The notes under the pieces were generated by a model. The model searched no databases. It was not told the DNA's origin and saw nothing but the letters and a program-made list of their open reading frames with translations. Source: an uncultured bacterium (GTDB lineage Bacteria > Patescibacteriota > Minisyncoccia > Phycocordibacterales > UBA9973). From it: DNA of 64,000 nt. This document shows positions 34,639 to 54,660 of this stretch, one piece after another. Positions within the stretch are counted from its first letter, which is position 1, and each line of letters starts with the position of its first letter. The stretch covers positions 9,957-73,956 of the forward strand of contig CAITQP010000004.1 in the NCBI GenBank assembly GCA_903894565.1. The letters run 5' to 3'. The position numbers were made by a program, and so were the translations under genes.

Positions 34639-34673
34639 ATATACCCCACTGTAGCAGGAAAAGGCAGGTTTTT

Positions 34674-35291: not shown

Positions 35292-35560
35292 AGTCTTTTT
35301 TCTGCAATTTTATATGCAACTGATCGATGAGCAATGACAAAAATCAAAACCTCTTTTTGTGTCATGCGAAAAATAACACGATAGTCCCCAACCCGAAGCT
35401 TACGATATGCTTTGAGCGCACGCCTCAGTGAAACCCCGTATACCTCAGGGTGTTCAATCAATTTATTGTCGATAGCTTTTTGAATGAGACGCTTCTCTGA
35501 TGTTCCAAGTTTCGGAATATCATTTGTGACAACTCCAATTTGATACCGAATTATATACAT
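35288..35560 (-). CDS. RelE/ParE-family type II toxin
   Basis: 90 aa with GDYRVIFR...VLIFVIAHR, a RelE/ParE signature; directly downstream of the antitoxin. Confidence 0.8.
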   Translation of the reverse strand: MYIIRYQIGVVTNDIPKLGTSEKRLIQKAIDNKLIEHPEVYGVSLRRALKAYRKLRVGDYRVIFRMTQKEVLIFVIAHRSVAYKIAEKRL

Positions 35561-38210: not shown

Positions 38211-38828
38211 TCACCATTTTTTAATTGCAGATACATTTTTAAGTCCAGAGTCTAAATCTGACAACAATGAACTCAATTGAATAAACGCTGTTTTATAGAG
38301 TGGCTCGCTTTGTTCGACGAACGAATTATAGATCGAACCTTCTCCTCGCTTGTATTCCTGGAGTGCCGACACGCCGAGTGACCGAGCCTCCTTTTCTTTC
38401 TCACTTCGTAGAGTTTGTATTTTTTCTGTAATTTCGTTTTTTTGTTTTTGTATCTGAGTACTAACCCCCACCCATGCATCCAATATCGCTTCTTTACGAG
38501 AAGAAGTAACGTCGTTCAGCGGACTTGGTAATGTTACAGAATCCAATTTCCTAAACATGAAATTTACAGTATCCATACTACTTGCTTGACCCATCAATAC
38601 AGCAACATCTAAGTCTCTGTTTTGTATATCATCACCGGATTTTTTTTCAACAGCAAGCCCCGAATATCCATGACCAACTTCACTCAAAGCATGGATGAAA
38701 GCCGGAAAAGTACTCACGGTGCAACCATCATAAGCCAAGACCTCGTTGCTTAATTTCGTTGCTTTGTTTTTTTCGTTCTCTTCATCAGAAACCTGAGGTA
38801 TAGGTCCTAGATTGGGATTAAATACCAT
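38211..38828 (-). CDS. hypothetical protein
   Basis: ORF only. Confidence 0.3.
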   Translation of the reverse strand: MVFNPNLGPIPQVSDEENEKNKATKLSNEVLAYDGCTVSTFPAFIHALSEVGHGYSGLAVEKKSGDDIQNRDLDVAVLMGQASSMDTVNFMFRKLDSVTLPSPLNDVTSSRKEAILDAWVGVSTQIQKQKNEITEKIQTLRSEKEKEARSLGVSALQEYKRGEGSIYNSFVEQSEPLYKTAFIQLSSLLSDLDSGLKNVSAIKKW

Positions 38829-38851: not shown

Positions 38852-40105
38852 TTAGACAAACTGCTCCGGAATTGGGAACTGTGTTGCAAGCGCAACAACT
38901 TCAGCTTTGATGACTTTTTTCTTGGCATCATCATCTTTGTTCTTGAGTGTTTCGATGAGGAGTTCGGCGACGCGAGCACATTCTGCTTCTTTGAATCCAC
39001 GAGTCGTGATGGCTGGTGTACCGAATCGAATACCGGACGGATCAAGTGGCTTGCGTGTGTCTCCTGCGATTGAGTTCATGTTGAGAGTGATACCAACTTC
39101 GTCGAGTGCTGTCTGCGCTTCCTTGCCGGTCACTCCAAGCGAACCGAATACATCGGCGAGAATGAGGTGATTGTCAGTACCGCCACCAATCATGCGTACA
39201 CCTTCGCGCTTGAGGACAGCTTCCATAGCTTTTGCATTCTTGAGCACTTGCTGTGCATATTCTTGAAACGCTGGTGTGAGTGCTTCACCGAAAGCAACAG
39301 CCTTTGCCGCAATCGTGTGCATGTGTGGACCTCCTTGGATTCCTGGGAAAATTGACTTATCGATCTTCTTGGCGATCTCTTCACTCTCACGGGTGAGAAT
39401 AATACCTCCGCGTGGTCCGCGAAGCGTCTTGTGTGTGGTCGAAGTGATTATATCGAATCCATCGTCGAATGGATTGCGAAGTGCCTTACCCGCAATGAGT
39501 CCCGCAATGTGGGCCATGTCGGCCATTGTGATTGCTCCCACTTCATGCGCGATATCGACGAATTTCTTGTAGTCGAGCGTGCGAGGATATGCGGAGAATC
39601 CAGCGATGATGAGTTTTGGTTTGTGTTCGAGCGCAACTTGGCGAAGACCTTCGTAATCAATTTCGCCAGTTTCTGGATCTTTCATCTTGTACGTGACGAA
39701 TTTGTAGATCTTGGCAGGAAGTGTCATTGGGTGACCATGAGTAAGGTGTCCTCCATGAGAGAGATCCATACCGAGCACGGTATCACCTGGTTCGAGAAGA
39801 GCAGCATAGACGGCAAGGTTTGCAGGCGCGCCAGAGTGTGGCTGAACATTGGCGAACTTACAGTTGAAAAGCTGTTTGACGCGCTCAATCGCAAGAGTCT
39901 CGACGACATCTGTATACTCCTGTCCGCCGTAGTAGCGACGTCCCGGGTACCCTTCTGAGTACTTGTTGGTCATGATTGAACCATTTGCAAGAAGCACGTT
40001 TTTGGAAACGTAGTTCTCACTTGGGATAAGTTCAAGACCCTCTGCCTGTCGTTTTGCCTCGCCCGCGATAGCTTCAAACACCTCCGTTTCTTTATATGAG
40101 CTCAT
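38852..40105 (-). CDS. glyA: serine hydroxymethyltransferase
   Basis: PLP-lysine motif TTHKTLRGPRGGIIL. Confidence 0.9.
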   Translation of the reverse strand: MSSYKETEVFEAIAGEAKRQAEGLELIPSENYVSKNVLLANGSIMTNKYSEGYPGRRYYGGQEYTDVVETLAIERVKQLFNCKFANVQPHSGAPANLAVYAALLEPGDTVLGMDLSHGGHLTHGHPMTLPAKIYKFVTYKMKDPETGEIDYEGLRQVALEHKPKLIIAGFSAYPRTLDYKKFVDIAHEVGAITMADMAHIAGLIAGKALRNPFDDGFDIITSTTHKTLRGPRGGIILTRESEEIAKKIDKSIFPGIQGGPHMHTIAAKAVAFGEALTPAFQEYAQQVLKNAKAMEAVLKREGVRMIGGGTDNHLILADVFGSLGVTGKEAQTALDEVGITLNMNSIAGDTRKPLDPSGIRFGTPAITTRGFKEAECARVAELLIETLKNKDDDAKKKVIKAEVVALATQFPIPEQFV

Positions 40106-40190: not shown

Positions 40191-41033
40191 TCAATCATCA
40201 CTTACAACCCAATGAATTGGATACTCGTAGTTACTTTTTCCCACAGTAAAAATATATGCCTCAATCTGTTCTTCTGTGAAATTCATATTTTTTAAAAGAG
40301 GATTCACAACATCAAGTGCCTTATCCCACGCGACATGTTCATCATACAAAATAGTATCAAGTACAGGGGCGTATTCTGGTGCAGTCAAATTTGTAACCAT
40401 TCCCGCTGCAAGAAAAACTTTTCTATCTTTTATAAGACGCTGTTGTTCCTTTTCACTTGCCGAAGAAAAATATTCAGCGTGACCGAGTTCGTGAGTATAG
40501 CCCATCAACTCAGGCAGTGTGCGTGTTGGGCTCGAGAGAACTATATTTTGTGAAGCATTGAATGTTTCACTTTTAAAATTTTTTTGTAGAGACCACAATG
40601 AAATAGTTCCCGTTTCGTTCTTTGGGACAATCACTGTTTCTCCTTCACCAGCCCGAATACTATATTCTTTTATGTAAACATACTCTGACATCTTTCGCTG
40701 ATTCTCCTCACTATTTTCCTTAAACAAAAGCGCGTTACTTAATCGAGCTTTCTGATCTTCGTTCAGTTGAGAAAATATACTCGACAACTGCTCCCACGCG
40801 AATGAAATCTTCCATCCTTCACCCTCAATCACCTCATTTCCTTCCGTCCCATTAAACGCAATGTCCTCATGAGTAAGTGGGACTTCAAGTGCTTTGCTCG
40901 ATACCTTTAATTGTTCAATAATTGCATCTCGATTCGGATTATCAAAAAGATTCTTGGCTTTGTCGGTCTTAAAATAATCACGGGCATAGTTCTCTGGTGT
41001 TGGCTTCGGGAATCCCATTTGTTCCATATGCAT
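40191..41033 (-). CDS. hypothetical protein with HExxH motif (putative zinc metallopeptidase)
   Basis: YTHELGHAEYF. True start is probably MEQMGFP, since the ORF-track extension to 41132 reads through a terminator hairpin. Confidence 0.4.
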   Translation of the reverse strand: MHMEQMGFPKPTPENYARDYFKTDKAKNLFDNPNRDAIIEQLKVSSKALEVPLTHEDIAFNGTEGNEVIEGEGWKISFAWEQLSSIFSQLNEDQKARLSNALLFKENSEENQRKMSEYVYIKEYSIRAGEGETVIVPKNETGTISLWSLQKNFKSETFNASQNIVLSSPTRTLPELMGYTHELGHAEYFSSASEKEQQRLIKDRKVFLAAGMVTNLTAPEYAPVLDTILYDEHVAWDKALDVVNPLLKNMNFTEEQIEAYIFTVGKSNYEYPIHWVVSDD

Positions 41034-41047
41034 ACATAGTATCACAG

Positions 41048-41079
41048 AAAAAAACCGCTCCGAAAGGAGCGGTTTTTTT
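41048..41079 (-). terminator. rho-independent terminator (aaaaaaaccgctcc-gaaa-ggagcggttttttt)
   Basis: Perfect hairpin with a GNRA loop and flanking A/T runs, 3' of the DEAD-box helicase. Confidence 0.7.
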
Positions 41080-41088
41080 ATCGTCTCT

Positions 41089-42507
41089 TTACGCAGGAAT
41101 GAAAGTAAGTGCGATTCCCTTCTTATCTGCACGGCCAGTACGGCCGATGCGGTGAACGTACGTTTCGTAATCGTTCGGGATATCGTAGTTGATCACGTGC
41201 GTGACATTTGGAATGTCGAGTCCGCGAGCAGCGACGTCAGTCGCGATGAGAATTTTGGTTTCGTTTTTCTTGAAACTCTCAAGCATGCGCATACGTTCGC
41301 GGTTGCGCTTGTCACCGTGAATACCGGCGACTTTGAAGCCGAGCGAGCGGAGCTCGCTCTCGAGCTGATCAACACTGCGCTTGGTCTCACGGAAAATGAG
41401 AACTTTGTCCGCACCCTCACCAATGAGAATGTCGTGCAATGTGTTGAGCTTGTCTTCTTTGCGGACACGAACAACGTCCTGATCAATGTTCTTTGAAGTG
41501 TTTCCTGTGACAACTGAAACGAAGAGTGGATCTTTGAGATACATTTCTGTCATCTTCTTGATCTCAGGCGAAAGTGTCGCTGAGAAGAAAAGTGTCTGTC
41601 GTGGTGTCGCACATTTGCCGAGGATGAATGTCATGTCGTCACGGAATCCCATGTCGAGCATGCGGTCTGCCTCATCGAGTACGACAGTACTGAATGTTGA
41701 GAGATCGAGTGCCTTCTGCTTCACGAGGTCGGTGATACGTCCTGGTGTTCCGATGACGAAGTTTACTCCGCGACGGATTTCACTGATTTGGCGATTGATT
41801 GGCATTCCACCAACAACTGAAACAGAGAAGACATGGAGCCATGCGGAAAGATCACGAAACTCAACTTCGATTTGCTGTGCAAGTTCGCGAGTTGGAGCCA
41901 TGATGAGTACTTTCTGCTTTTTATCGCGACTAACGCGATCAATGAGCGGAAGAATGAAGGCACCAGTTTTTCCAGTTCCGGTGTTTGCAAGACCGAAGAA
42001 GTCACGACCACCGAGCACGGTCATGATCGACTGATCCTGAATTGGTGTTGGGTGAACGAAGCCTTTCTTGGCGATATTTTTCTGAAGCTGTTCTCCGAAT
42101 GGAAAATCAGCAAATTTGTGTTTCGCAACATATTTCTTTGCTTCCGTAACAGGCTCTGCCTTTTTTACGAATTTTGAAAAATCGATGCGTTGAGCGAAGC
42201 GTGATCCGCCTCCCCCGCCTCCCGTGCGATTGCGCGCGAAGCTCGTACTTCGGCGACCAGCCCCGAAACCACTTTTACGTGGAGCAGCGCCGAATCGTGA
42301 ACTACTTGATTTAAAACCGCCTGAACGAGCTGGGGCACTTGAAGAAGCGCCGCTCGGACGAGCAGAGTGTGATGGACCTGTATAGCGGAAGCCTGAGCCT
42401 GAACGCGTTACGGGCGATGAATTGAACGAGCGCTTTCCGCCTGATGACGGGCGCGCAGAATGACCTGTGGGCATATAGTTACTTGTTTTGTCATGGATAT
42501 CAACCAT
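41089..42507 (-). CDS. DEAD-box ATP-dependent RNA helicase with N-terminal Arg/Gly/Ser-rich tail
   Basis: Q motif (PTPIQ), Walker A (ANTGTGKTGAF), DEAD (VLDEADRMLD), SAT, HRIGRTGRA. Confidence 0.9.
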   Translation of the reverse strand: MVDIHDKTSNYMPTGHSARPSSGGKRSFNSSPVTRSGSGFRYTGPSHSARPSGASSSAPARSGGFKSSSSRFGAAPRKSGFGAGRRSTSFARNRTGGGGGGSRFAQRIDFSKFVKKAEPVTEAKKYVAKHKFADFPFGEQLQKNIAKKGFVHPTPIQDQSIMTVLGGRDFFGLANTGTGKTGAFILPLIDRVSRDKKQKVLIMAPTRELAQQIEVEFRDLSAWLHVFSVSVVGGMPINRQISEIRRGVNFVIGTPGRITDLVKQKALDLSTFSTVVLDEADRMLDMGFRDDMTFILGKCATPRQTLFFSATLSPEIKKMTEMYLKDPLFVSVVTGNTSKNIDQDVVRVRKEDKLNTLHDILIGEGADKVLIFRETKRSVDQLESELRSLGFKVAGIHGDKRNRERMRMLESFKKNETKILIATDVAARGLDIPNVTHVINYDIPNDYETYVHRIGRTGRADKKGIALTFIPA

Positions 42508-42619: not shown

Positions 42620-43606
42620 ATGTCAATATTCGCCAAAAGTCGGCAAAAAACATATACTCAATACATGAAAGGCAAACACGCGGACGAGCAGTATCTCGAC
42701 TTACTCCAAAAGCTCATCGATCTGGGTACAGAAAAAACTGACCGCACGGGTACAGGCACAAAATCGTTCCTTGGTCATCAAATGCGTTTCGATCTTGAAG
42801 ACGGCTTCCCTCTTCTCACTACAAAAAAAGTACCGATCAAAGCAATCATTCATGAACTGCTTTGGTTTATGCGTGGCGACACCAATCTCAAATATCTCGT
42901 CGACAATAATGTGCACATTTGGGATGAGTGGCCATACAAGGCATATCTCAAACGAAACAATCTCCCGATTCCAGAAATTAATGGTGAAGAATGGAAGACA
43001 GGCATGAACGCTTTTGTCGAACGCATCAAAACTGACGAACAATTCAGAAATGAATACGGCAACCTCGGACCGATCTATGGATATCAGTGGCGTAGTTGGC
43101 CAACACCAAATGGCGGACACGTTGATCAGCTCGCCAAAGTGATTGAACAAATAAAGACAACACCTGATTCACGACGCATGATCGTGTCGGCGTGGAATGT
43201 CGCCGATATTGATGAGATGGCAAAGGCAGGGCTCCCGCCCTGCCACTGCTTCTTCCAGTTTTATGTCGCCGACGGCAAACTCTCCTGCCAACTCTACCAA
43301 CGTTCGTGCGATACATTTCTTGGCGTGCCATTCAACATCGCGTCGTACTCAATCTTCACGATGATCATCGCACAAATCTGTGGATTGAAGGCTGGCGAAT
43401 TCGTTTGGACTGGCGGTGATGTACATTTGTACAAAAATCACATTGAGCAAGCTCAACTGCAACTCACTCGTCGGAGTGATATTCGTCCCCTCCCGACGAT
43501 GAAGATAAATCCCGCAAAAACAAAAATCGAAGATTTCACGATCGACGATTTTGAACTTGTTGATTACAATCCGCATGATGCCATCAAGGCACCAATCGCA
43601 GTCTAA
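42620..43606 (+). CDS. thyA: thymidylate synthase (ThyA, long form)
   Basis: [16 protein letters not shown], and the catalytic Cys in [12 protein letters not shown]. Confidence 0.9.
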
Positions 43607-43611
43607 ATTAT

Positions 43612-44055
43612 TTGTATAAAATCAAAACAATGAAACAAGGTACAGACTATATTGGAACAGGTGTGGGTGCATTCATCCTCAATGACGAGGGTGAACTTTT
43701 TCTCATGAAGCGTGGTCCAGAATCAAAAAATGAGGTTGGTTACTGGACTGTACCTGGAGGCACCGTCGAATTCGGCGAAACACTGAGTGATGCAGTCGTA
43801 CGTGAAGTACGTGAAGAAATCGGTGTCGATATCGAACTCGATGGACAGCTTCCTGCGATTGATCATATTTTACCCAAAGAAAAGCAGCACTGGGTCACCA
43901 CGATCTTTCCTGCGCGCATTATTTTTGGCACACCAGAAATACTTGAACCATCAAAATGTAGCGATATCGGTTGGTATCCACTCGAAGCTCTTCCTGCTCC
44001 CTTGGCCAGCTCACTACAAAAAACAGTGAACACATTTTTAAATATCGAAGAATAA
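43612..44055 (+). CDS. Nudix hydrolase
   Basis: Nudix box GGTVEFGETLSDAVVREVREEIGV. Confidence 0.8.
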   Translation: MYKIKTMKQGTDYIGTGVGAFILNDEGELFLMKRGPESKNEVGYWTVPGGTVEFGETLSDAVVREVREEIGVDIELDGQLPAIDHILPKEKQHWVTTIFPARIIFGTPEILEPSKCSDIGWYPLEALPAPLASSLQKTVNTFLNIEE

Positions 44056-44075: not shown

Positions 44076-45749
44076 ATGGAAAATAAGATCTGCAAACAAT
44101 GTTCGAATCAATTCTCAATTGAACCAGACGATTTTTCGTTTTACGAAAAAATGCAGGTGCCTCCACCAACACTTTGTCCAATCTGTCGTCAAAAGCGACG
44201 CATGTTCATTCGCAATTTCACCACACTCTACAAGCGAACGTCATCAAAATCTGGCAAACCTATTATTGGTATGTATCACGCCGATCAGCCCTTCCCTGTC
44301 TGGAGCACAGAAGAATGGTACGCAGACGATTGGGACGCAATTGAGTATGGACGTGACTATGATTTTTCTCGACCATTTTTTGATCAATATCATGAGCTCC
44401 TGAATGAAGTGCCTCATGCTTCACTCATGGTTACAAACAGTTCAGATTGCGGATACTGTAATGTTTCGCATCGTAGTTCGCATTGCTATTTCGCCTTCGG
44501 AGTTGTCGACAGTGAATATTGTGACTACGGCGGTCATGCAATTTGGAATTCACGAGAATCATCTGACTGCGCGTATCTCTACAAATCAGAATACTGTTAC
44601 GAATGTATCGACGTCCTTGAATCAAACAATCTCCTCTATTCTGAAGAATGTGAAGCCTGTGCTGAATCAATCGGACTCTTTGATTGTCGCGGGTGCGTAA
44701 ATTGTATTGGCTGTGTTGGTTTGCGAAACAAGTCGTATCATATTTTCAACCAACCAGTTTCCAAAGAAGAATACCAACAATTCAAGATTGATCACCCGCT
44801 CCGAGACAGTGCAACACTCGCATACATACAAGAGGAACAATCGAAATTAAAGCTCACTGTTCCGACTCCACACATGTTTGGCTCTCACAATACAGACGTA
44901 TCTGGAAACCATATTTATAACGCGAAAAATATAGCGTGGAGTTTTGATATCAAGAGCGGAGAAAATGGAAAATTTGGATTCACCGTTCGTTCACTCGTCG
45001 AGAGTTACGACTCAATATTCACAACGAATGTTGAACACTGCTATGAAACAGTTTTCTCTCAATCGTACAAACTCATCGCGTGCCACATGGCACAAGATTG
45101 TACCGAAACTTCATATTCTCAATTTTGTCTAAACTCAAACAACTTGTTTGGCTGTGTTGGTCTGCGCAAAAAAGATTATTGTATTTTGAATAAACAATAT
45201 ACCAAGGAAGAATATGAAGCACTCGTGCCAAAAATAATTGAACACATGCGCTCGACAGGAGAATGGGGTGAATTCTTTCCAATCGAGCTTGCACCTTTTA
45301 CTTACAATGAGTCTACCGTAAATGAATACTACCCCCTCGCTCGCGAAGAGGCATGTGCCGAAGGATACCCATGGAAAGACGACATTCCAGCAATGCGCGG
45401 GCAAGAGAACTTTACGATTGACCAAACTGACACCTACGAGTTTGAATTCTTAAAAGATAAAATCTTTGCTTGTGAATCCTGCGAACGAAATTACCGATTC
45501 ATCGATCATGAACTTTCACTCTATAAACGATTCGGACTCCCTCTTCCACGCAATTGTTTCTTCTGCAGACATGCGAGACGAATGCAAAAACGTCTTCCCC
45601 GCACACTTTACGAACGAACCTGTATGTGTGAGCAACATACTCATGCGCACGGGAATGAGCACTGCCAAACCGCATTCATGACCGCATTCAGCCCTGACCG
45701 ACCAGAGCATGTGTATTGCGAAAAATGTTATCAAGCTGAAATTGTCTAA
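44076..45749 (+). CDS. uncharacterised Cys-rich multi-zinc-ribbon protein (557 aa)
   Basis: N-terminal CKQC...CPIC; an internally duplicated C.GC.NC.GCVGLR.K.Y.I.N....KEEY module; C-terminal CESC...CFFC and CMC...HAH...C...CEKC. ORF-track start 43971 overlaps Nudix; MENKICKQC at 44076 preferred. Confidence 0.55.
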   Translation: MENKICKQCSNQFSIEPDDFSFYEKMQVPPPTLCPICRQKRRMFIRNFTTLYKRTSSKSGKPIIGMYHADQPFPVWSTEEWYADDWDAIEYGRDYDFSRPFFDQYHELLNEVPHASLMVTNSSDCGYCNVSHRSSHCYFAFGVVDSEYCDYGGHAIWNSRESSDCAYLYKSEYCYECIDVLESNNLLYSEECEACAESIGLFDCRGCVNCIGCVGLRNKSYHIFNQPVSKEEYQQFKIDHPLRDSATLAYIQEEQSKLKLTVPTPHMFGSHNTDVSGNHIYNAKNIAWSFDIKSGENGKFGFTVRSLVESYDSIFTTNVEHCYETVFSQSYKLIACHMAQDCTETSYSQFCLNSNNLFGCVGLRKKDYCILNKQYTKEEYEALVPKIIEHMRSTGEWGEFFPIELAPFTYNESTVNEYYPLAREEACAEGYPWKDDIPAMRGQENFTIDQTDTYEFEFLKDKIFACESCERNYRFIDHELSLYKRFGLPLPRNCFFCRHARRMQKRLPRTLYERTCMCEQHTHAHGNEHCQTAFMTAFSPDRPEHVYCEKCYQAEIV

Positions 45750-46538
45750 ATGACGACTCAAGCAAAAAATATATACGGTGTTCGCGTTGTGTACCACACG
45801 GCTGGTGACCCAAAGAATCCACCAATCGTATTTCTTCATGCGTGGGGTGCGAGAAATATCAAACGTGTCATCCGAGAATTCGCGTGTGATTTTTATGTAA
45901 TCGTTCCTGAGCTTCCTGCACTCTTAGGTTCAGACACTCCAACAAATCCTTCTTGGTCATACACTGACTACGTCGAACTTGTCCGTGCGCTCATCAAAGA
46001 ACTCAATGTCACCAAACCAACACTCGTTGGGAATTCGTTCGGCGGAAGTATCGCGACAATTTACGCGACGCTCTATCCGAGCGATATGCGAAATCTCGTA
46101 CTTGTTGACTCGGGAACATCGAGTGAATATCCACGAACACCGTACATGCGAAGGTACCATAGACGCTTTTTCTTTTTGCTCACCTCCCCTACAGTTCCCG
46201 CGTTCATCAAAAAATTCGCAGTCTGGTATTACCTAGGCAAGCCGTTTTCACGTATCACAAACCAAGAACTCAAAAACGAAATTCAATTCGCGCAGAATTT
46301 CAACCGCGAATTTATTGTCGACTATTCCAAAATCATCGTGCCAACACTCGTACTCTCAGGCTCGCGCGATACAGTTATTCATCCGCTAGCGGACGCGCGG
46401 AAAATAGCACACATTATTCCAAATGCGCAGTTTTATACTTACTCCGGAAACGTCACAACGATCTACCAGAAGCCTACAAAAATCATCAATCTCATCAAAC
46501 AACACCTTTTTCAAAAAAGTGCTACACTGTCCGCATGA
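45750..46538 (+). CDS. alpha/beta-fold hydrolase
   Basis: GxSxG LVGNSFGGSIA; its start ATG immediately follows the preceding stop. Confidence 0.7.
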   Translation: MTTQAKNIYGVRVVYHTAGDPKNPPIVFLHAWGARNIKRVIREFACDFYVIVPELPALLGSDTPTNPSWSYTDYVELVRALIKELNVTKPTLVGNSFGGSIATIYATLYPSDMRNLVLVDSGTSSEYPRTPYMRRYHRRFFFLLTSPTVPAFIKKFAVWYYLGKPFSRITNQELKNEIQFAQNFNREFIVDYSKIIVPTLVLSGSRDTVIHPLADARKIAHIIPNAQFYTYSGNVTTIYQKPTKIINLIKQHLFQKSATLSA

Positions 46539-47088: not shown

Positions 47089-50000
47089 TTAGTAACTACA
47101 AAACGAAGCATCAGAACCCGTAACAAGCACCCCGCTTGCATTTCGTGCCCATGCTTGTAAGTGCCAAGGCGTATTACACGAGATTGCTCCGATCGGAACA
47201 GTAGCTGTAAATGTGCCTGTTCCTGTCATTGTTGGTCCTGGCACAGTGGCATTGACCGAACCAGATGAATACGCGGTCGTTCTTCCATAATAGAAACCGA
47301 CACTCGCGCTTGAAGCTCCTGCTCCGAGCGAGATAAGATTACCCTTCAACAGAGCAGAAGAGGAACTGAGAAGTGCTCCTGAAACAGTCGACACACTTGG
47401 GTTACATACAACAGTGGTAAAGAGTGCATCCGCACCATTCGCTGAGCCTCCAGTATTGGTGGCTTTTGCGCGATAATGATATGTCGTATTACATGCAAGG
47501 CTCGAAACTGAACCAGTGAATGTTCCAGTTGTACTCAACGTACCAGCGGAGACGGTAGAACCATATGATGTCGTCAATCCATATTCAAAACTGACTGTTG
47601 TACTTGAAGCTCCACCGGTACTTGTGAGATTGCCTCCGATGGTCGCACTGAATTGTCCTACCCCACTCGCGCTTGTTGTCGCGACAGTTGGAGCACATGC
47701 GGAGGTTGTGAATGAAGTATCTCCGCCATTCGCTGAACCTCCGGTATTTGTAGCCTTTGCGCGATAATGATATGTCGTATTACATGCAAGACTTGAGACT
47801 GAGCTACTAAATATTCCCGTCGTACTCATTGTTCCTGCTGATATGGTTGAGCCATATGAAGTTGTTGTTCCGTACTCGAAGCCAACTGTTGTACTTGAAG
47901 CTCCACCGGTGCTTGTGAGATTTCCACCAAGAGTGGCCGTCGCTACACCGACAGCACTCGCCGATGTTGTTGCCACTACTGGCAGACCAATCGGGCACGC
48001 ACTTGTTGTGAACGAGAGTGTCGAACCAGCAGCCGAATGACTACCGTTATTTGTCACGGTCGCATTAAATGTATATGTCGTGTTACAAGTAAGGCCTGTT
48101 AGGTTATACGAATATGGTGATGGTGCTAGTGTGATTAAGCCAGTAAGTATGACCGCCGTTCCAAAACTTCCGGCAAATCCTCGAGTTGCACTTGTCGCAC
48201 CCGAGCCAAGAGAAGTGACTGTTCCATTCAATGTTGCTCCTGTTGCAGTGATCCCCGTCGCGGTATTCGTCGTAACCGATGGAGAACCGACTGGACACGC
48301 AGTCGTCGTAAACGTGAGGTCCGCTCCGTTTGCAGGACCCGAACCATTCAACGCGTCAGCTTGGAAATAATATGTCGTTCCACACGTGAGGCCTGAAATA
48401 TTTTCATGAAATGCACCAACCGAAGTTACAACTCCTGAAGTCGAAAGGGTGTAGGCAGTTGATGTATCGTATTGGAAGAATGTTACGGTAGAAGGATCTC
48501 CTCCATTACTGGTAAGATTGCCGTTCAAGACAACACTTGTGCCAGTAACTGATGCCGCACTCACTGTCGTAACTGACGGTCCGCCGGTACACGCGTCGGT
48601 TGTAAAATTCTGGATAGAACCTACGGCTGAAACGCTCGCGTCGTTAACGACTTGAGCTTGATAATAATACGTAGTGCCACACGATAGCCCGTAAAGAACA
48701 GAGAGGTATGTATGAGGAACGGTCGTAATCCAAAGCGGACCACCAACAGCGACAGTCGTACCGAGTGCCGTAGTTGTGCCGTATTCAAAACTCGGTGTGA
48801 CGCTCAACGCTCCAGTACCCAGCGCCGTAACCGTGGCGTTCATGACACCACTTGTAGCACTAATCGTCGTGGCTGTATTTGTGGTGACCAGAGGTGCACC
48901 CGCTGGACACGGAGCTGTTCGAAATACGATTGAAGCACCGCTCGCTGAAAGCGCGACGTTGTTTGTAATTTTTGCAATATAACTATACGAAGAATCACAA
49001 GTGAGCCCAGACACATTTGCCGTGAAGGTGCCAGTTCCAAACGTTCCAGATACGGTGATCGGAGCACCGAAACTTGTGGTAAATCCGCGACTGGTGATAC
49101 TTGTTGCTCCAAGACCAAGCGACGTTACGTTTGCATTCAGGGTTGCAGTTGTTGTCGTGATTGCAGTTGCAGCAACAGTTGTAACAACAGGTGCTCCAAT
49201 CGGACATGCAGCAGTTACAAAAGATATTGTGCCGCCTGAACTTGAGACACTCGCGTTGTTTGTCGCCGTAGCAATAAAATTGTAACCCGTATTACACGTG
49301 AGGCCAGTGATCATCGAGGAGAACGTTCCTGTTCCAAAAGTACCAGTCATCGTGATGGGAACTCCAAAGCTACCAGTAAATCCGCGACTCGTTATGCTTG
49401 TCGCTCCAGTACCCATGCTTGTTACATTTCCGTTAATGGTAGCACTTGTCGTTGTAATCGAAGTTGCGCTTGTTGTTGTAACAACAGGTGCTCCGATAGG
49501 ACAAGCACTTGTGGTAAATGAAAGTGCTGATCCGGTACCAGTCAATCCGGCATCATTTACGGCACTCGCCGTAAATGTATATGTTGTATGACACGTCAAA
49601 CCAACAAGATCTTGAGAAAACGCTGATGGTAGAGTTCTAATCACTGTCATTGTCGTGCCCGAGCCTCCAGAACTTGAAGTCAATGTACGGCTCGTGATTG
49701 ATGTTGCGCTTGTACCAAATGCTGTGACGTGTCCGTTGATTGTTGCGGTGGTTGTTGTTATTGCAGTTGCAGGATCGGTGATTACTGTTGGAGCGGTGGC
49801 TGGGCAGGCTGGTGTGGTGAATGAGACTGGGGTGAGATCAGTCGTTGCTCCCCCACCTGCATTTGTTGCTGTCGCAAAATATGAATATGTGGTGCCACAA
49901 GCGACTGTTGTTGTACCAGAAAAATTGGTAAGCGATGTGAGTGTTGGAGTTGATGAAGCGACAGTTGCACCGCCGAAATTAAATGAGACCGAAGATGAAG

Positions 50001-50112
50001 TGAGGGCCCACTTGCTCCTATTCCGAATGAGTCGAGATGTCCTTTGAGTGTTGCTGTCGTACCGGAAACGGTTGCCGTCACTGTGTGTACTGTTGGCGGC
50101 ACAAGTGAACAC
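47089..50112 (-). CDS. C-terminal ~1000-aa part of giant surface protein: ~11 tandem Fn3-like ~95-aa repeats (same gene as 49782..52028, separated by a frameshift near 50004-50009)
   Basis: Repeated unit ACP.G.P.VTT..AT.IT.T.AT.NG.VTS.G.GATS...GF....G......G....F...++GLTC.T.Y.+.A.A.N..G...G....FTT. Confidence 0.6.
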   Translation of the reverse strand: MFTCAANSTHSDGNRFRYDSNTQRTSRLIRNRSKWALTSSSVSFNFGGATVASSTPTLTSLTNFSGTTTVACGTTYSYFATATNAGGGATTDLTPVSFTTPACPATAPTVITDPATAITTTTATINGHVTAFGTSATSITSRTLTSSSGGSGTTMTVIRTLPSAFSQDLVGLTCHTTYTFTASAVNDAGLTGTGSALSFTTSACPIGAPVVTTTSATSITTTSATINGNVTSMGTGATSITSRGFTGSFGVPITMTGTFGTGTFSSMITGLTCNTGYNFIATATNNASVSSSGGTISFVTAACPIGAPVVTTVAATAITTTTATLNANVTSLGLGATSITSRGFTTSFGAPITVSGTFGTGTFTANVSGLTCDSSYSYIAKITNNVALSASGASIVFRTAPCPAGAPLVTTNTATTISATSGVMNATVTALGTGALSVTPSFEYGTTTALGTTVAVGGPLWITTVPHTYLSVLYGLSCGTTYYYQAQVVNDASVSAVGSIQNFTTDACTGGPSVTTVSAASVTGTSVVLNGNLTSNGGDPSTVTFFQYDTSTAYTLSTSGVVTSVGAFHENISGLTCGTTYYFQADALNGSGPANGADLTFTTTACPVGSPSVTTNTATGITATGATLNGTVTSLGSGATSATRGFAGSFGTAVILTGLITLAPSPYSYNLTGLTCNTTYTFNATVTNNGSHSAAGSTLSFTTSACPIGLPVVATTSASAVGVATATLGGNLTSTGGASSTTVGFEYGTTTSYGSTISAGTMSTTGIFSSSVSSLACNTTYHYRAKATNTGGSANGGDTSFTTSACAPTVATTSASGVGQFSATIGGNLTSTGGASSTTVSFEYGLTTSYGSTVSAGTLSTTGTFTGSVSSLACNTTYHYRAKATNTGGSANGADALFTTVVCNPSVSTVSGALLSSSSALLKGNLISLGAGASSASVGFYYGRTTAYSSGSVNATVPGPTMTGTGTFTATVPIGAISCNTPWHLQAWARNASGVLVTGSDASFCSY

Positions 50113-51050
50113 GCGAGTGTTGTGAACGACATATCTGAACCAGTGCCCATTCCTGTTGTGTTCTGCGCGTACGCACGGAAGTGATATGAGGTCGCGCAGG
50201 AAAGACCAGTGATCGTAAGCGTATACGGACCCGTACTAAATGTACCCACTCCAGAATCAATTGCTGGATCAAGACCGATCGTCGTAAGTGTTGGTGTTGT
50301 GTTATAAGAAAAACCACGTGCAGAGGCACTCGATGCTCCGCCAAGCGACACAATCGTGCCGTTGAAAGTAGCACTCGTACTTCCTGGAGTCACGCTATCC
50401 GTCGTGACGAGTGGTGGCGTCAAACAAATAGACGTTGTGAATGTCATGTCCGCTCCGTTTGTAGTGCCGATGGAATTCGTCGCCCAGGCTCGATAATGAT
50501 AGAGCGTATTACATGTGAGGCTAGCTATGGTGGTATTCACAAATAAAGTTGGAACAGTGTATGGAGCGGACATTGTTACCGTAGATCCATATGCAGTTGT
50601 CGTTCCGTAATTGAATCCAGCAGTCGCGCTTGGTGCTCCACCGAGGTCGGTGAGATTCCCGGTGAGAGTAACTGTGCTCGTGGTAATACTAGTTGCGCTA
50701 ACGGTGAGAACTGTTGGAGAAACAGGTGGGCACGATGACGTCGTAAACGACATGTCTACACCGTGTGCAGACCCCATTGAATTTATAGCTGTTGCCTCGA
50801 AGTGATATCCAGTCGCACAAGTGAGTCCCGTAAGATTTGCAGTAAACGTGCCTGGAGATATTTGTATTCCGGCACTAGCGGTACTTCCGTAGAGACTAGA
50901 AGTACCCCATGAAAATCCAACACTATTAGAAACACCAGCACCCCCCGTATCAGTTATATTTCCAGTAATAGTTGCTGTTGTTTGAGTTATTGCACTGCTA
51001 CTCACCGTAAGCACGGTAGGTGGGACAACCGTATTTTCATAAATAAACTC
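47200..51050 (-). repeat. coding tandem repeat array (~285-nt period, ~15 copies) encoding Fn3-like domains; some adjacent copies are nearly identical
   Basis: Periodic protein repeats; plus-strand antisense ORFs recur with VVTTGAPIGHA-like motifs. Confidence 0.7.
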
Positions 51051-52028
51051 TCCATAATTAGCGGCCGCGTACTTTGTGCCAGTCGCATCTGATGCTGTTT
51101 TATACCAATTACCTATGCCAGCTCCTGTCTCAGCGGTCCAGTGCACCCCACGATCATGAGAAACATATATGTATGTTCCTGAGCTTCCTGCAATAAGAGT
51201 ATTCCCTGACGCATCAGAGGCAACGTCTACCCAATTATGCATCCCCGAAGAACCGCTGTAATCAGTCCAAGTTGCACCATAATTTGTCGACATCCAAATA
51301 TATCCGTATTGATCGGTAGCAGCCAAATACTGCCCTGTTGCGTCAGAGGCGATTCCCGCCCAACTACCACTCGCATGAATACCCGATGATGCAACAGTCC
51401 AGTGAGCACCGTAATCATTCGAGACAGAAATTCCACCTCCACTCCATGCACTCGCAGCTAAATATCTTCCGGTAGAATCGGAAACAATTTTTCTCCAACT
51501 ATTACCACCCGAGGATCCGATTCCATGTGCATCAGGAAAATCGGTCCAGGTTAGCCCCGCATCAGATGATGTCCAGATATATCCACGTTGATCTGTGGCG
51601 GCAAGATGTGATCCGTCAGAAGAAGAAGAAACTCCTCCCCAGTAAATAACACCGGAGGAGCAATTGTGAAGAGACCATGTTACGCCTGCGTCTGTTGAAA
51701 TAGAAATACAACCGGTTGATGTTTGAGAAACAGCAACGAGCTTACTTCCTGTTGAATCGGAGGCAACAGCATACCAGTCTGAAAAACCAGAAGAACCATA
51801 CCCGCGAGCATTCGGAAAATCAGTCCATGTCAGACCGGTATCTGCTGACACCCACACAAATCCTGAACCAACAGCCGCAAGATGGGTCCCATCAGAAGAA
51901 GAAACTATTGAGTTCCAAGTCCCAGCCCCTGAACTCCCTCCATGATTCGTCCACGCTGCAAACGTATGTGGAGTAGCGACGAAAAAAAAGATAGCCGCGA
52001 GAAATCCTATCAAAAGAAATTTTTTCAT
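49782..52028 (-). CDS. N-terminal part of giant surface protein: signal peptide, BNR/Asp-box beta-propeller (~6 SxDxGxTW motifs), then ≥4 Fn3-like repeats; the last ~74 aa of this ORF are out of frame
   Basis: Signal peptide MKKFLLIGFLAAIFFFVATPHTFA; Asp-boxes (SADTGLTWTD, STDAGVTWS, SSDAGLTWTD, SNDYGAHWT, STNYGATWTD, SHDRGVHWT). Confidence 0.65.
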   Translation of the reverse strand: MKKFLLIGFLAAIFFFVATPHTFAAWTNHGGSSGAGTWNSIVSSSDGTHLAAVGSGFVWVSADTGLTWTDFPNARGYGSSGFSDWYAVASDSTGSKLVAVSQTSTGCISISTDAGVTWSLHNCSSGVIYWGGVSSSSDGSHLAATDQRGYIWTSSDAGLTWTDFPDAHGIGSSGGNSWRKIVSDSTGRYLAASAWSGGGISVSNDYGAHWTVASSGIHASGSWAGIASDATGQYLAATDQYGYIWMSTNYGATWTDYSGSSGMHNWVDVASDASGNTLIAGSSGTYIYVSHDRGVHWTAETGAGIGNWYKTASDATGTKYAAANYGEFIYENTVVPPTVLTVSSSAITQTTATITGNITDTGGAGVSNSVGFSWGTSSLYGSTASAGIQISPGTFTANLTGLTCATGYHFEATAINSMGSAHGVDMSFTTSSCPPVSPTVLTVSATSITTSTVTLTGNLTDLGGAPSATAGFNYGTTTAYGSTVTMSAPYTVPTLFVNTTIASLTCNTLYHYRAWATNSIGTTNGADMTFTTSICLTPPLVTTDSVTPGSTSATFNGTIVSLGGASSASARGFSYNTTPTLTTIGLDPAIDSGVGTFSTGPYTLTITGLSCATSYHFRAYAQNTTGMGTGSDMSFTTLACSLVPPTVHTVTATVSGTTATLKGHLDSFGIGASGPSLHLRSHLISAVQLSLHQLQHSHRLPIFLVQQQSLVAPHIHILRQQQMQVGEQRLISPQSHSPHQPAQPPLQQ

Positions 52029-52559: not shown

Positions 52560-52892
52560 CTACGGGTCAATGTCTGTTTTGACTCGAATAAAAACATCCT
52601 TACCGTCAGGTGTTTTTTCTTTTATATATTTGCGCTTCTTATTGATTTCAATTTTGCGCGTAAGCTCACTCTCGAGATCGTAGCCAAGCTGTTCGCACAT
52701 ACCGAGCAAAAAAATCGCGACATCGGCAATCTCTTCGGCTACTCCTGGCTGACTCTTACTGAATTTTGAAAATGCTTCTGAGAGCTCTTCATGCGCGCGA
52801 CAAAATTCAAATGCAATATCGGTCGTATTAAAACCTTTTTCGATTTTATTCTGCATCACCTCTTTCTGTAATTGTTTGAGATCTACTGACAT
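52560..52892 (-). CDS. MazG-like nucleotide pyrophosphohydrolase
   Basis: EExxE motifs (EELSEA, EEIADV) in a ~110-aa all-alpha protein. Confidence 0.65.
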   Translation of the reverse strand: MSVDLKQLQKEVMQNKIEKGFNTTDIAFEFCRAHEELSEAFSKFSKSQPGVAEEIADVAIFLLGMCEQLGYDLESELTRKIEINKKRKYIKEKTPDGKDVFIRVKTDIDP

Positions 52893-52898
52893 ATATAT

Positions 52899-53399
52899 TT
52901 ACTGATCTGTATAATTCTCGACTTCGTTACTGAGTATCACCAATTCCACGCAAGCGTCTTTAAAAATTTCTTTGGTACGCCCCGCTGCATGATAGTCCTT
53001 GGCACACACAACACGTGTAATACCCGCATTGATAATCACCTTTGCACAGTTGTAACACGGAACCATTTTGACATAAATTGTCGAGCCATCAATCGCAACA
53101 CCGAATCGTGCCGCGTTCGCAATAGCGTTCGTCTCTGAGTGTGTCGTGCGAATACAATGTCGCGACGTACTACCATCTTCATTCGTGACGGTGTGCATCT
53201 CATGCCCTACTTCATCACAGTGGGCGAGACCTCGAGGTGAACCAGCATAGCCTGTCGCAAGAATTCGTTTGTCCTTCGTAATCACACAACCAACATGACC
53301 GCGGTCACAGGTACCACGCGAGCCAACAAGGTCCGCCATTTGGAGGAAATATTCATCCCATGAAGGTCGAGCCTGTTTAGTTGGAATATTGTCTGACAT
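52899..53399 (-). CDS. dCMP deaminase (ComEB-like)
   Basis: HSETNAI (H[AS]E) and PCYNCAKVI (PCxxC) zinc-binding motifs. Confidence 0.8.
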   Translation of the reverse strand: MSDNIPTKQARPSWDEYFLQMADLVGSRGTCDRGHVGCVITKDKRILATGYAGSPRGLAHCDEVGHEMHTVTNEDGSTSRHCIRTTHSETNAIANAARFGVAIDGSTIYVKMVPCYNCAKVIINAGITRVVCAKDYHAAGRTKEIFKDACVELVILSNEVENYTDQ

Positions 53400-53420: not shown

Positions 53421-54125
53421 CTACTTTTTACCAATCTTACGGAACATTGGACCATACACGTCCTCTTCGATCGGAATGAGCAATTCTTTTTTGTTCACAC
53501 GATCAGTAAATTCGATTTCTGCGCCAGTAATAATCGCGAGCGGACGGCACTCTTTGCCCTCTCCCATCGGGAGCACTGCGGTCGTAGCAAGTGCGTCAGC
53601 AACGTCAGTACGTGTCATTGTGAGTTTGCGTCCAAAAATATCTGGTGTTCCGCGATAGTCACGAATTCCTTTGAATCCTGCGTAGCCGAGAGCAACACCG
53701 ACAACACCTGCACGAAGTGGGAGCAAGCGTGAATCAGTAATGAGTACCCCGAGCTCCTTCACACCGTAATGCTTCATAAGTTTCTTACGCATCTCACTTG
53801 CAGCTTTGTATGAATCTTTTGGAAGTAGCACAATTTTGCCGTCAGCGTTTGATTCATCCACACCAGCATTCGCCACGAGCATTCCATCTTTGATGGTGAG
53901 CCAGACATATTCAGTCTCGAGGGCGAATTCTGATTCCGAACGAATGAGCGCTTCCTTTTCTTTTTCTGTGCCGAGCTTCGCTGTTCGCCCCTCAGACAAT
54001 GCAACAATTTTTGATGTAATGACAATAACAGAACGCTCGGGAGCTCGTTTAATAAAACGAGTAACAAAGGCAAAAAGATCTTCATTTTCAGCAAATACTT
54101 TTGTGGTGATTGGTTTAATATTCAT
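53421..54125 (-). CDS. CofE-like (F420-0:gamma-glutamyl ligase family) protein
   Basis: LVANAGVDESNA motif, ~235 aa. Confidence 0.55.
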   Translation of the reverse strand: MNIKPITTKVFAENEDLFAFVTRFIKRAPERSVIVITSKIVALSEGRTAKLGTEKEKEALIRSESEFALETEYVWLTIKDGMLVANAGVDESNADGKIVLLPKDSYKAASEMRKKLMKHYGVKELGVLITDSRLLPLRAGVVGVALGYAGFKGIRDYRGTPDIFGRKLTMTRTDVADALATTAVLPMGEGKECRPLAIITGAEIEFTDRVNKKELLIPIEEDVYGPMFRKIGKK

Positions 54126-54129
54126 ACTA

Positions 54130-54660
54130 TTATTTATTACGAACGTATCGAAGCACTATCGTACCATGAGGATTCAATTTTTTCACGGAAACAAGTTTAA
54201 ACTGTGTCCGAAGTTTCCCTTCGGCGAACAATTGTTTCCCTCCTCCAAGAATGACCGGTTCGATGGTAAGGTGCAATTCATCAAACAATCCGAGATCAAG
54301 CATAGTCCGATATGCTTCCGATCCTCCAACAATAGCGACCATTTTATGCTCTGCGCAAAGTGTGCCAATGTCCGTGTGTCGTGGATTGAGAAACGTTACT
54401 GATCCTGTGACTTTTGGTTTTATGACTTTGCTCGTTAGGACGTATGCGACACGTTTGTCGATGTGATCTTGAGCTACACGATAGGTCCGAGAACCGGCGA
54501 CGACCGCGCTCGCTTTCGCGAGCGCGGTCTGAAAGTACTTCCAATCTTCTCCACTCGTCCAATCAGGCATGCGCGAAGTATCGGTGGAAATATACCCATC
54601 AATACTCACAGCGGCATACGCAACGTATCGAGTTCTAGGCTGTCGTTTTTGATGTGTCAT
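54130..54660 (-). CDS. RibD C-terminal domain / DHFR-like reductase
   Basis: YAAVSIDGYIS...DELHLTIEPVILGGGKQLF pattern of the RibD_C family; start placed at MTHQKRQ. Confidence 0.6.
   Translation of the reverse strand: MTHQKRQPRTRYVAYAAVSIDGYISTDTSRMPDWTSGEDWKYFQTALAKASAVVAGSRTYRVAQDHIDKRVAYVLTSKVIKPKVTGSVTFLNPRHTDIGTLCAEHKMVAIVGGSEAYRTMLDLGLFDELHLTIEPVILGGGKQLFAEGKLRTQFKLVSVKKLNPHGTIVLRYVRNK

Follow-up and report, generated by a model that had tools for sequence, protein, structure and literature searches.

A 64,000-nucleotide stretch of contig CAITQP010000004.1 from an uncultured bacterium of the Patescibacteriota (assembly GCA_903894565.1), hereafter the window, carries between thyA and folA a gene for a cysteine-rich protein, which we call gene X. 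Gene X is one member of a massive multi-paralog family of Patescibacteria and belongs to the best-conserved orthogroup of that family, orthogroup A. This membership is the main feature missed by an earlier reading of the letters alone (the sequence-only reading). The open reading frame (ORF) list gives a TTG-initiated ORF on the + strand between positions 43971 and 45749, and its internal ATG at 44076 opens a 557-amino-acid protein starting with MENKICKQC. Position 44076 was taken as the start of gene X because orthologs begin at the same residue. The exact protein is on record in five public contigs. Comparison with a 93%-identical ortholog in a related genome (locus L001) gave nonsynonymous and synonymous substitution rates of dN = 0.039 and dS ≈ 1.4 (dN/dS = 0.028). 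Gene X is a real, functional gene under strong purifying selection. Family hidden Markov models (HMMs) recognized it with 865 and 679 bits as the single family copy in the window, and the same scan detected neither a second copy nor an isolated zinc module elsewhere in its 64 kb.

The protein contains 33 Cys and 21 His, and is acidic as a whole (isoelectric point 5.4, net charge −23), with charges of +3 and +7 for its first and second zinc fingers (ZnF1 and ZnF2). Neither a signal peptide nor a transmembrane segment was detected by reading of its sequence, and the protein is probably cytoplasmic. The sequence-only reading had described a 557-residue Cys-rich multi-zinc-ribbon protein. All the motifs that it quoted are present (CKQCSNQF…CPICRQ; FDCRGCVNCIGCVGLRNKSYHIFNQPVSKEEYQQF; FGCVGLRKKDYCILNKQYTKEEYEAL; CESCERNY…CFFCRHARR; CMCEQHTHAHGNEHC…CEKCYQ), and three CxxC…CxxC modules are formed. 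For prediction of the structure, an AlphaFold2 model was built on an alignment of 47 sequences, and was confident overall (predicted local distance difference test [pLDDT] 82.8; predicted template modelling score [pTM] 0.81). The features of gene X, all on the + strand of the window, are as follows.

44076..45749 (+), gene X, zinc-ribbon/double β-solenoid protein of 557 residues, orthogroup A; stop codon TAA at 45747-45749
44082..44210 (+), residues 3-45, ZnF1, predicted treble-clef zinc finger, C6/C9…C34/C37, then an Arg-rich helix with R38, R41 and R42
44226..44321 (+), residues 51-82, decayed zinc ribbon, a pair of β-hairpins; CxxC…CxxC replaced by Ser/Thr/Glu in orthogroup A
44313..44336 (+), residues 80-87, acidic Trp motif EWYADDWD, family consensus EWWxDxWD; short helical region in the AlphaFold2 model
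44427..44753 (+), residues 118-226, β-solenoid 1, ~9 coils of 12 residues, with a Cys ladder; closing cap motif GCVGLRNKSYHIFN…KEEY
44754..44861 (+), residues 227-262, two helices after solenoid 1 (230-239 and 245-261 in the AlphaFold2 model)
44862..44957 (+), residues 263-294, conserved loop (FGSHNTDVSGNHIYNAKN…), not placed by AlphaFold2, pLDDT below 50 for residues 269-293
44958..45191 (+), residues 295-372, β-solenoid 2, duplicate of solenoid 1; terminates in FGCVGLRKKDYCILN
45192..45461 (+), residues 373-462, cap helix (KQYTKEEYEAL…) and acidic YNE region, GEWGEFFP…FTYNESTVNEYYP…GYPW
45462..45611 (+), residues 463-512, ZnF2, second predicted treble-clef finger, C466/C469…C494/C497; basic helix, net charge +7
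45612..45746 (+), residues 513-557, ZnF3, predicted finger, C516…C530…C548/C551, with a His-rich insert (MCEQHTHAHGNEHC)

The internal Cys-rich duplication noticed in the sequence-only reading was borne out by BLASTP, in which residues ~153-245 aligned with residues ~301-394 (33% identity over 95 residues, E = 1e-11). ZnF1 (residues 6-43) aligned likewise with ZnF2 (466-503; E = 3e-8). By these alignments, the duplication of the core is statistically real, and ZnF1 and ZnF2 are homologous. The profile autocorrelation showed maxima at lags 12 and 24 for both residues 118-226 and residues 295-372, indicating that the coils of both solenoids are 12 residues long. In the AlphaFold2 model, solenoid 1 is composed of four-residue strands placed every six residues (pLDDT 84-98); the confidence was lower for solenoid 2 (pLDDT 57-70), and pLDDT values were 83-87 for ZnF1 and 81-95 for the cap helix and YNE region of the full-length model. 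For the decayed ribbon, the model has strands at 52-55 and 62-65. The two acidic β-solenoids, homologous to each other and built of 12-residue coils, are framed by three intact CxxC…CxxC fingers and a decayed one, and both solenoids are closed by one cap motif, GCxGLRxKxYxIxN…KEEY.

Searches for known families gave weak matches to the terminal fingers only. Residues 5-42 matched Pfam zf_Tbcl (PF13451) with 21.2 bits (E = 2.8e-4), under the gathering score of 24, and residues 529-554 matched zf_Tbcl_2 (PF23477) with 15.1 bits (E = 0.019), under the gathering score of 27. Among the 47 orthologs, zf_Tbcl was matched by 39 (best E = 2.7e-8), several of which carry the precomputed assignment, and zf_Tbcl_2 by 24 (best E = 8e-7). 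Both ZnF1 and ZnF2 show the zf_Tbcl signature, in which CxxC pairs about 25 residues apart are combined with F-x-[IV]…[DE]xxFYxK…PxP and C-P-x-C-R. The N-terminal and the two C-terminal fingers of gene X thereby share with these "probable treble clef" families the CxxC…CxxC spacing and the pattern F-x-I…FYxK…PxPxxCPxCR or …RPxxVYCxxCY; in contrast, the Pfam models are only ~40-48 residues long, and no function has been assigned to them. A gene X finger can be superposed on isolated viral "zinc-ribbon domain" proteins at 0.6-0.8 Å over ~40 residues.

The core of about 400 residues is covered by no model of Pfam, NCBIfam, PADLOC or PHROGs, and no match to PDB sequences was found with the single protein or with the profile of 47 sequences, in agreement with the sequence-only reading, which could not assign the protein to a family. 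Terminal fingers aside, no catalytic or other known domain was detected in gene X, the 47 orthologs or 10 divergent paralogs. In the limited fold libraries searched, PDB and the viral folds of BFVD, neither the whole protein nor the C-terminal 185 residues gave a match, and these residues, from the YNE region onward, gave a best E of 1.1 when modelled alone. PADLOC defence profiles gave no matches to gene X, and the best PHROGs match (E = 0.0018) extended over 50 residues of the Cys repeat; a defence-system or phage-protein reading was rejected on these results. Four further candidates were rejected. An Fe-S cluster at C204-x2-C207-x2-C210-x2-C213 would need cysteines of which only C210 and partly C207 are conserved across paralogs. 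Against reading the treble-clef fingers as an HNH or His-Me nuclease, HNH proteins were listed in BFVD only at E > 1, and by sequence inspection only, the first strand has no general-base His and H499 is not universal. A hexapeptide acyltransferase or γ-carbonic anhydrase was dismissed on insignificant structural matches, and a Rosetta-stone fusion through the 808-residue family variant P0266 on the absence of a Pfam domain in its C-terminal extension.

Two known β-solenoid classes resemble the core in part. Beetle antifreeze proteins (Pfam AFP, PF02420) have the 12-residue coil with Cys in register, and a few orthologs carry precomputed PF02420 matches. The gene X protein, however, gives no PF02420 match at E ≤ 1, lacks a signal peptide and the Thr-Cys-Thr ice-binding face, is probably cytoplasmic and flanked by zinc fingers, and has paralogs that largely dispense with the cysteines; the likeness is most probably a convergent repeat geometry. 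Left-handed β-helix (hexapeptide) proteins, namely γ-carbonic anhydrases, GlmU and LpxA, gave the closest structural matches to solenoid 1, none of them significant, and share with it short strands every six residues. They differ in the Foldseek scores (E ≥ 0.024, template modelling score ≤ 0.23, root-mean-square deviation ~12 Å) and in the coil length (18 versus 12 residues); no hexapeptide Pfam match was found in 47 members, and the catalytic residues of the acyltransferases and carbonic anhydrases are not alignable to gene X. No description of the gene X family was found in the literature searched. Families enriched in Parcubacteria have been reported as "primarily hypothetical proteins" (Méheust et al. 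2019, PMC6744442); their taxonomic profile, as given there, is like that of the gene X family, and the main text of that paper makes no mention of zinc or cysteine-rich families. As far as found, the building blocks (treble-clef fingers and a Cys-ladder 12-residue solenoid) are known, but the architecture, the core of ~400 residues and the paralog repertoire are undescribed.

The family is large. A word-indexed search gave at least 7,692 homologs of gene X, and the best 120 of these are mostly full-length (~550 residues), 49-95% identical, and named only "hypothetical" or "zinc-ribbon domain containing"; they come from Nomurabacteria, Liptonbacteria, Paceibacterota, Minisyncoccia and the "Patescibacteria group." An exhaustive profile search of 1.84 billion representatives, each standing for a cluster at 50% identity, detected 4,843, 3,403 and 2,008 proteins at E ≤ 1e-3, 1e-10 and 1e-30, respectively. 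We then collected 80 species-level genome loci by using patterns specific to orthogroup A. Nearly all carry Patescibacteria labels, including Staskawicz-, Kuenen-, Harrison-, Peregrini- and Peribacteria; one "Gammaproteobacteria" label and many automated "Saccharibacteria" labels among them are untrustworthy. Every named source of the family is Patescibacteria.

By tblastn, no match was found in 72,556 plasmid records or in 50,697 phage records, and IMG/VR gave a single low-complexity match (locus L081), a short phage peptide of (CxxCxx)n repeats. An origin of gene X from plasmids, phages or IMG/VR viruses was rejected on these null searches. The same results bear on the idea of a selfish or mobile gene that repeatedly inserts into operons, as might be suggested by the occurrence of one to three copies within operons that are contiguous apart from them (purL|purQ, mur|mur, Nudix|folA). 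Besides its absence from plasmid and phage records, the family has no transposase, integrase or nuclease domain in gene X, 47 orthologs and 10 divergent paralogs, and it shows strongly purifying selection and long-term orthology, so that a selfish nature is considered extremely improbable. As a separate observation, the L081 match (L081:498-1078, IMG/VR UViG_3300023301_000041) consists of two adjacent small phage-contig proteins of 88 and 105 residues, largely (CxxCxx)n, for example CMNCIDCFNCIFCRDCTNCTDCTDCGHCKNCIDCIGCVGC, which resemble the last coils of solenoid 1.

The organization of the family was analyzed in the 80 loci, with ORFs predicted by our own caller, which considered ATG starts in code 11 but neither alternative starts nor genetic code 25, and clustered by BLASTP with single linkage and a 50% coverage requirement. 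The prevalence and paralog composition given below are biased because the loci were retrieved via orthogroup A patterns. A total of 238 family members was identified, and 45 of the 80 loci contain two or more copies as co-directional tandem arrays. In each array exactly one copy is 50-66% identical to the gene X protein and represents orthogroup A, which comprises 61 members, one per locus. Of 120 adjacent family pairs, 100 overlap or are at most 60 nt apart. Copies in one array are 30-50% identical to each other and near-constant in length (550-600 residues). The largest array, in L005, has 11 copies, or 12 with one cut by the locus end. This array (L005:198-21946, contig JANBVK010000001.1, 621 kb) consists of at least 12 co-directional family genes over ~22 kb, is interrupted solely by an M17 aminopeptidase gene, and continues beyond both ends of the fetched locus. 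For 95% of the non-A copies, the closest relative was a copy in another genome rather than in the own array (median identity 56% versus 42%), and for 79% a closer relative than any in the own array was found even in Peregrini-/Peribacteria-type loci. These identities show that the paralog duplications are ancient and that the paralogs have been conserved separately.

Such arrays raise the alternative that the paralogs come together as subunits in a single cytoplasmic hetero-oligomer, either a structural assembly or a large machine, in which the constant modules would serve as contacts. Eukaryotic CCT, with eight ancient paralogs in one assembly, is a precedent, and β-solenoids commonly oligomerize. 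The arrays are tandem and co-directional with genes often overlapping (translationally coupled), and the paralogs are ancient, non-redundant and near-constant in length, as expected of subunits. On the other hand, the copy number (from 1 to at least 12 per locus) and the make-up from dozens of subfamilies vary widely between genomes. The A gene stands alone in 33 of the 80 loci and in the 64-kb window, though further copies could be elsewhere in those genomes, and the helical caps at the solenoid ends of the AlphaFold2 model would argue against end-to-end polymerization. We consider an assembly of this kind unlikely.

To see which parts of the protein are common to all paralogs, conservation was compared between orthogroup A and 148 non-A paralogs. 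In the latter, conservation reaches at least 90% at the finger ligands and at ~35 further positions, including D84, W86, Q104, P113, Y138, D164, N225, G277, D312, Y347, N372, K373, Y375, Y410, N411, E479, P491 and R498; many of the constant positions fall in the duplicated cap motif. The Cys ligands of ZnF1 are at least 93% conserved across all paralogs, C516, C530, C548 and C551 of ZnF3 at least 97%, and R498 and P491 of ZnF2 100%; the His-rich insert of ZnF3 occurs in some members of orthogroup A only. In the acidic Trp motif, E80, W81 and W86 are invariant within orthogroup A, and D84 and W86 are found in 95% and 91% of the non-A paralogs. The highest conservation across all paralogs was observed for the cap helix and YNE region (0.66-0.73; Y410 100%, N411 97%). 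At the decayed ribbon, the non-A consensus has Cys at positions 56/59 and 77/80 of gene X, making a fourth CxxC…CxxC ribbon.

The A-specific invariants, defined as positions at least 95% conserved within A with the top residue below 40% in paralogs, number 29, of which 11 are in solenoid 1 and 6 in loop 263-294; examples are positions 142, 153, 154, 157, 166, 167, 170, 179, 186, 191 and 193, and positions within 269-298. With 31% of the protein's length, the two solenoids and the loop contain 21 of the 29 (binomial P = 5e-6). The difference between within-A and across-paralog conservation was +0.33 for solenoid 1, +0.36 for loop 263-294 and +0.20 for solenoid 2, against −0.04 to +0.09 for ZnF1, ZnF3, the WWxDxWD region and cap 2. 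The loop has a mean conservation of 0.78 in orthogroup A, and its G277 is 99% conserved across all paralogs. Thus the fingers, the caps and the EWWxDxWD and YNE motifs are constant in all paralogs, and the A-specific residues concentrate on solenoid 1, loop 263-294 and the start of solenoid 2. Such a split would be expected if a scaffold common to all paralogs carried a recognition surface or pocket that differs from one paralog to the next.

Most of the core "ladder" cysteines (C125, C149, C174, C204, C213) are not conserved in paralogs, and the variants P0208 (574 residues) and P0266 (808 residues) lack most of the cysteines that serve as zinc ligands in the three fingers and have kept the core motifs. 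The metal sites look structural because these two variants keep the core without most of the finger cysteines. A buffer or storage protein for metal (zinc) or thiol-redox equivalents would account for the high Cys and His content with several predicted Zn sites, and CutA1 and M17 metallo-aminopeptidase genes are interspersed in some arrays. Such a buffer would, however, need neither the ~35 non-Cys positions conserved family-wide nor the orthogroup-specific invariants, and Cys-less variants exist; we regard it as very improbable. The C-terminal extension of P0266, ~250 residues long, is a separate peculiarity of that variant.

The genomic contexts of orthogroup A are diverse. In ~16 loci the A gene lies between purL and purQ of the purine operon (Pfam-verified), and in ~10 loci between Mur-ligase genes. 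It was also found after rpoB-rpoC, after L13-S9-GrpE, after L21, between RuvX and a tRNA-binding protein, and in arrays containing M17 aminopeptidase, CutA1 and PGK. The common theme of these contexts is constitutive housekeeping operons and not one pathway. When the 80 loci were probed with the zinc modules in search of partner proteins, nothing was detected beyond more X copies and a TrwB/VirD4-like ATPase. This ATPase carries a C-terminal zf_Tbcl_2 finger, the type of the C-terminal finger of X, and is often followed by ComEC; it is present in ~15 of the 80 loci and ~10 of the 24 array loci. Next to X arrays it recurs in L006, L019, L027, L028, L032, L038, L042, L043, L047, L048, L054 (for example, L054:14125-16035), L069, L072 and L078.

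With such an ATPase nearby, the family members could be translocated or secreted effector-like proteins, or cargo adaptors of the TrwB/VirD4-like ATPase and ComEC machinery, with the zf_Tbcl_2 finger as a shared recognition module; multi-paralog arrays are typical of effector repertoires. The orthologs are, however, highly conserved and the paralogs ancient, unlike the products of effector arms races, and the gene X protein has no export signal of the kinds sought above. Tightly folded zinc fingers are poor secretion substrates. No TrwB-like gene or other zinc module was found in the window, and the co-location elsewhere may merely reflect lineage synteny. An effector or cargo-adaptor role is accordingly rated as quite improbable.

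In the window, the operon-like order thyA, Nudix, X, α/β-hydrolase and folA described in the sequence-only reading was confirmed by Pfam. The neighbours of gene X are the following.

42620..43606 (+), thyA, Pfam Thymidylat_synt (E = 1e-118); alternative start 42665
43612..44055 (+), Nudix hydrolase, Pfam NUDIX (E = 1e-20); alternative start 43630; upstream of X also in L001, L012 and L046
45750..46538 (+), α/β-hydrolase, Pfam Abhydrolase_1; absent from L001, L012 and L046
46535..47056 (+), folA (DHFR), Pfam DHFR_1 (E = 2e-53); alternative start 46547; directly after X in L001, L012 and L046

No convincing terminator was found between thyA and folA, and a gap of 20 nt precedes X. The last three genes had been described as overlapping. 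This holds for hydrolase and folA, which share an ATGA if folA starts at 46535 (with the start at 46547 they are 8 nt apart), but not for X and hydrolase, as the TAA of X only abuts the hydrolase ATG. The order thyA–Nudix–X–folA was found in three of the 80 related loci, L001, L012 and L046. Since these share the arrangement, the neighbourhood is conserved outside the window and is not unique to it, but only among close relatives as judged from the flanking genes. The α/β-hydrolase represents a strain-specific insertion because it is absent from all three; and as it is absent even from L001, with its 93%-identical X, the two hydrolases were not inserted between thyA and folA as a unit, contrary to what had been proposed.

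The precomputed gene calls for the source contig place this string within a deoxynucleoside triphosphate (dNTP)/folate island on both strands of the window, at ~33946-55291, the block of which is kept in L012 and L046. Its members are listed here.

33946-34686, Tmk/dNK
between Tmk/dNK and SHMT, genes for HAD, Maf, S51 peptidase and PCC
38852-40105, SHMT
after SHMT, genes for DEAD helicase, ThyA, Nudix, X and DHFR
52560-52892, MazG-like
52899-53399, dCMP deaminase
53421-54125, CofE/F420-ligase-like
54130-54660, second DHFR/RibD_C
54635-55291, Vut_1

The thyA/folA context is therefore real and larger than the sequence-only reading stated, yet lineage-specific. The linked function in nucleotide or folate metabolism suggested there is not supported, as the co-location is not family-wide and two nucleotide-related contexts among about ten independent ones are within chance (rough estimate, P ≈ 0.2-0.6). 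That gene X lies between thyA and folA is an accident of its lineage, not a family trait.

We tentatively propose that gene X encodes a zinc-stabilized recognition or adaptor protein with a housekeeping role. In this model the fingers, caps, EWWxDxWD and YNE motif would form a common scaffold and docking surface, with zinc sites that are presumably structural. The Arg-rich helices leaving ZnF1 and ZnF2 may contact a common partner, possibly nucleic acid, and the surface made of solenoid 1, the loop and solenoid 2 would give each ancient paralog its own target. Orthogroup A would perform a conserved housekeeping task, being transcribed with whichever constitutive operon hosts it; here the host would be the thyA–Nudix–X–folA string of the dNTP/folate island, with no dedicated role in that pathway. 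Binding, as an adaptor, assembly factor or regulator, seems more likely than catalysis.

Several points weigh against this proposal. A scaffold with a paralog-specific surface suits a multi-substrate enzyme family equally well, the preference for binding being inferred, and enzymes with a β-helix fold are known. Universally conserved polar residues (D84, Q104, D164, D312, N372 and K373, and further Y375, Y410, N411, E479 and R498) could form an active site. The contiguity of the A-specific surface is presumed from sequence positions, and solenoid 2 and loop 263-294 are poorly modelled by AlphaFold2. The Arg-rich helices might instead pack on the acidic core, their exposure also being presumed. 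Finally, our view of the non-A paralogs is biased, the loci having been chosen through orthogroup A.

The main rival is an enzyme family in which each ancient paralog has its own substrate, such as a nucleotide, a cofactor or a modification site in RNA or protein; it includes the nucleotide/folate idea. The pocket would be formed by solenoid 1, loop 263-294 and the YNE region. Very strong conservation, with an identity floor of ~50% across classes, fits an enzyme, and D84, D164, D312, K373, Y375, Y410, N411 and E479 are invariant in all paralogs; most of the universal residues, however, are in the duplicated cap motifs and zinc fingers, suggesting a structural role. A conserved loop that AlphaFold2 leaves unplaced is typical of substrate-gated loops, and separately conserved specialized paralogs are typical of enzyme families, but the searches above recognized no catalytic or cofactor-binding fold or motif. 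The contexts can also be read in favour of an enzyme, because orthogroup A is in two nucleotide operons, thyA–Nudix–X–folA (the window and three loci) and purL–X–purQ–purF–purN–purD (~16 loci), and the window holds a full dNTP/folate island. Against this stand the mur, rpoBC, ribosomal-protein/GrpE, RuvX and pgk contexts of the same orthogroup, the restriction of the thyA/folA arrangement to close relatives, and a number of nucleotide contexts not above chance. Taken together, we judge an enzyme family to be somewhat unlikely, and keep the recognition or adaptor protein as the tentative proposal.

In a wider sense, the family possibly, though doubtfully, marks a core process of Patescibacteria with a new core fold that has no counterpart outside the radiation. 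With the same reserve, the dozen or so ancient specialized paralogs might act jointly, as adaptors or machine subunits, on a conserved partner, for which imported DNA or nucleotides, RNA maturation and host-dependent housekeeping are conceivable candidates. If so, the repertoire would take ~20 kb, or 2-3% of a ~0.6-1 Mb genome. A large part of bacterial diversity belongs to the Patescibacteria. Their genomes are tiny, and many of their lineage-defining proteins are "hypothetical." Genomes that shed most biosynthetic pathways still keep up to at least 12 ancient paralogs of this family, and to identify its partner or activity would probably uncover a cellular function specific to the radiation. 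For annotation, the locus calls for caution, as the slot in a tight thyA–folA "operon" suggests a metabolic role that the comparative context does not support.

Several minor observations were made on the island and its surroundings. A dNTP/folate island is unusual for Patescibacteria, as de novo nucleotide synthesis is reportedly missing from most of them (Méheust et al. 2019). L001, L012 and L046 lack counterparts of the α/β-hydrolase, a ParE-like toxin gene and two hypothetical genes. These four genes, at 45750-46538 (+), ~35288-35560 (−), ~38211-38828 (−) and ~40191-41033 (−), were inserted into the island recently and are strain-specific.

Among the genes shared across the syntenic island, X has diverged most, with 50-51% identity against 65-93% for most others, as compared between window positions 44076-45749 and L012:3299-4948 or L046:10001-11650. 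The identity dips symmetrically around X, from 86-87% for ThyA and 65-75% for Nudix to 50-51% for X, and up again to 67-75% for DHFR and 80-85% for MazG. Gene X groups instead with the orthologs of L002 and L003 (66% and 64%), where the contexts differ. This divergence could reflect an in situ replacement by the copy of another lineage, or a burst of divergence.

Between DHFR and MazG, the island is split by two giant Thr/Ser/Gly-rich repeat proteins of ~853-1007 and 748 residues, encoded at 47089-52028 (−) and showing faint fn3/BNR matches. They are common only to the window and L001 (~75% identity), and absent from L012 and L046. Their gene boundaries are uncertain because ORF 47089-50112 overlaps ORF 49782-52028 by ~330 nt. 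The DEAD-box helicase at 41089-42507 (−) has an N-terminal Ser/Gly/Arg-rich low-complexity extension of ~100 residues, and its 3′ end overlaps the start of a long downstream ORF (40191-41132) by 44 nt.

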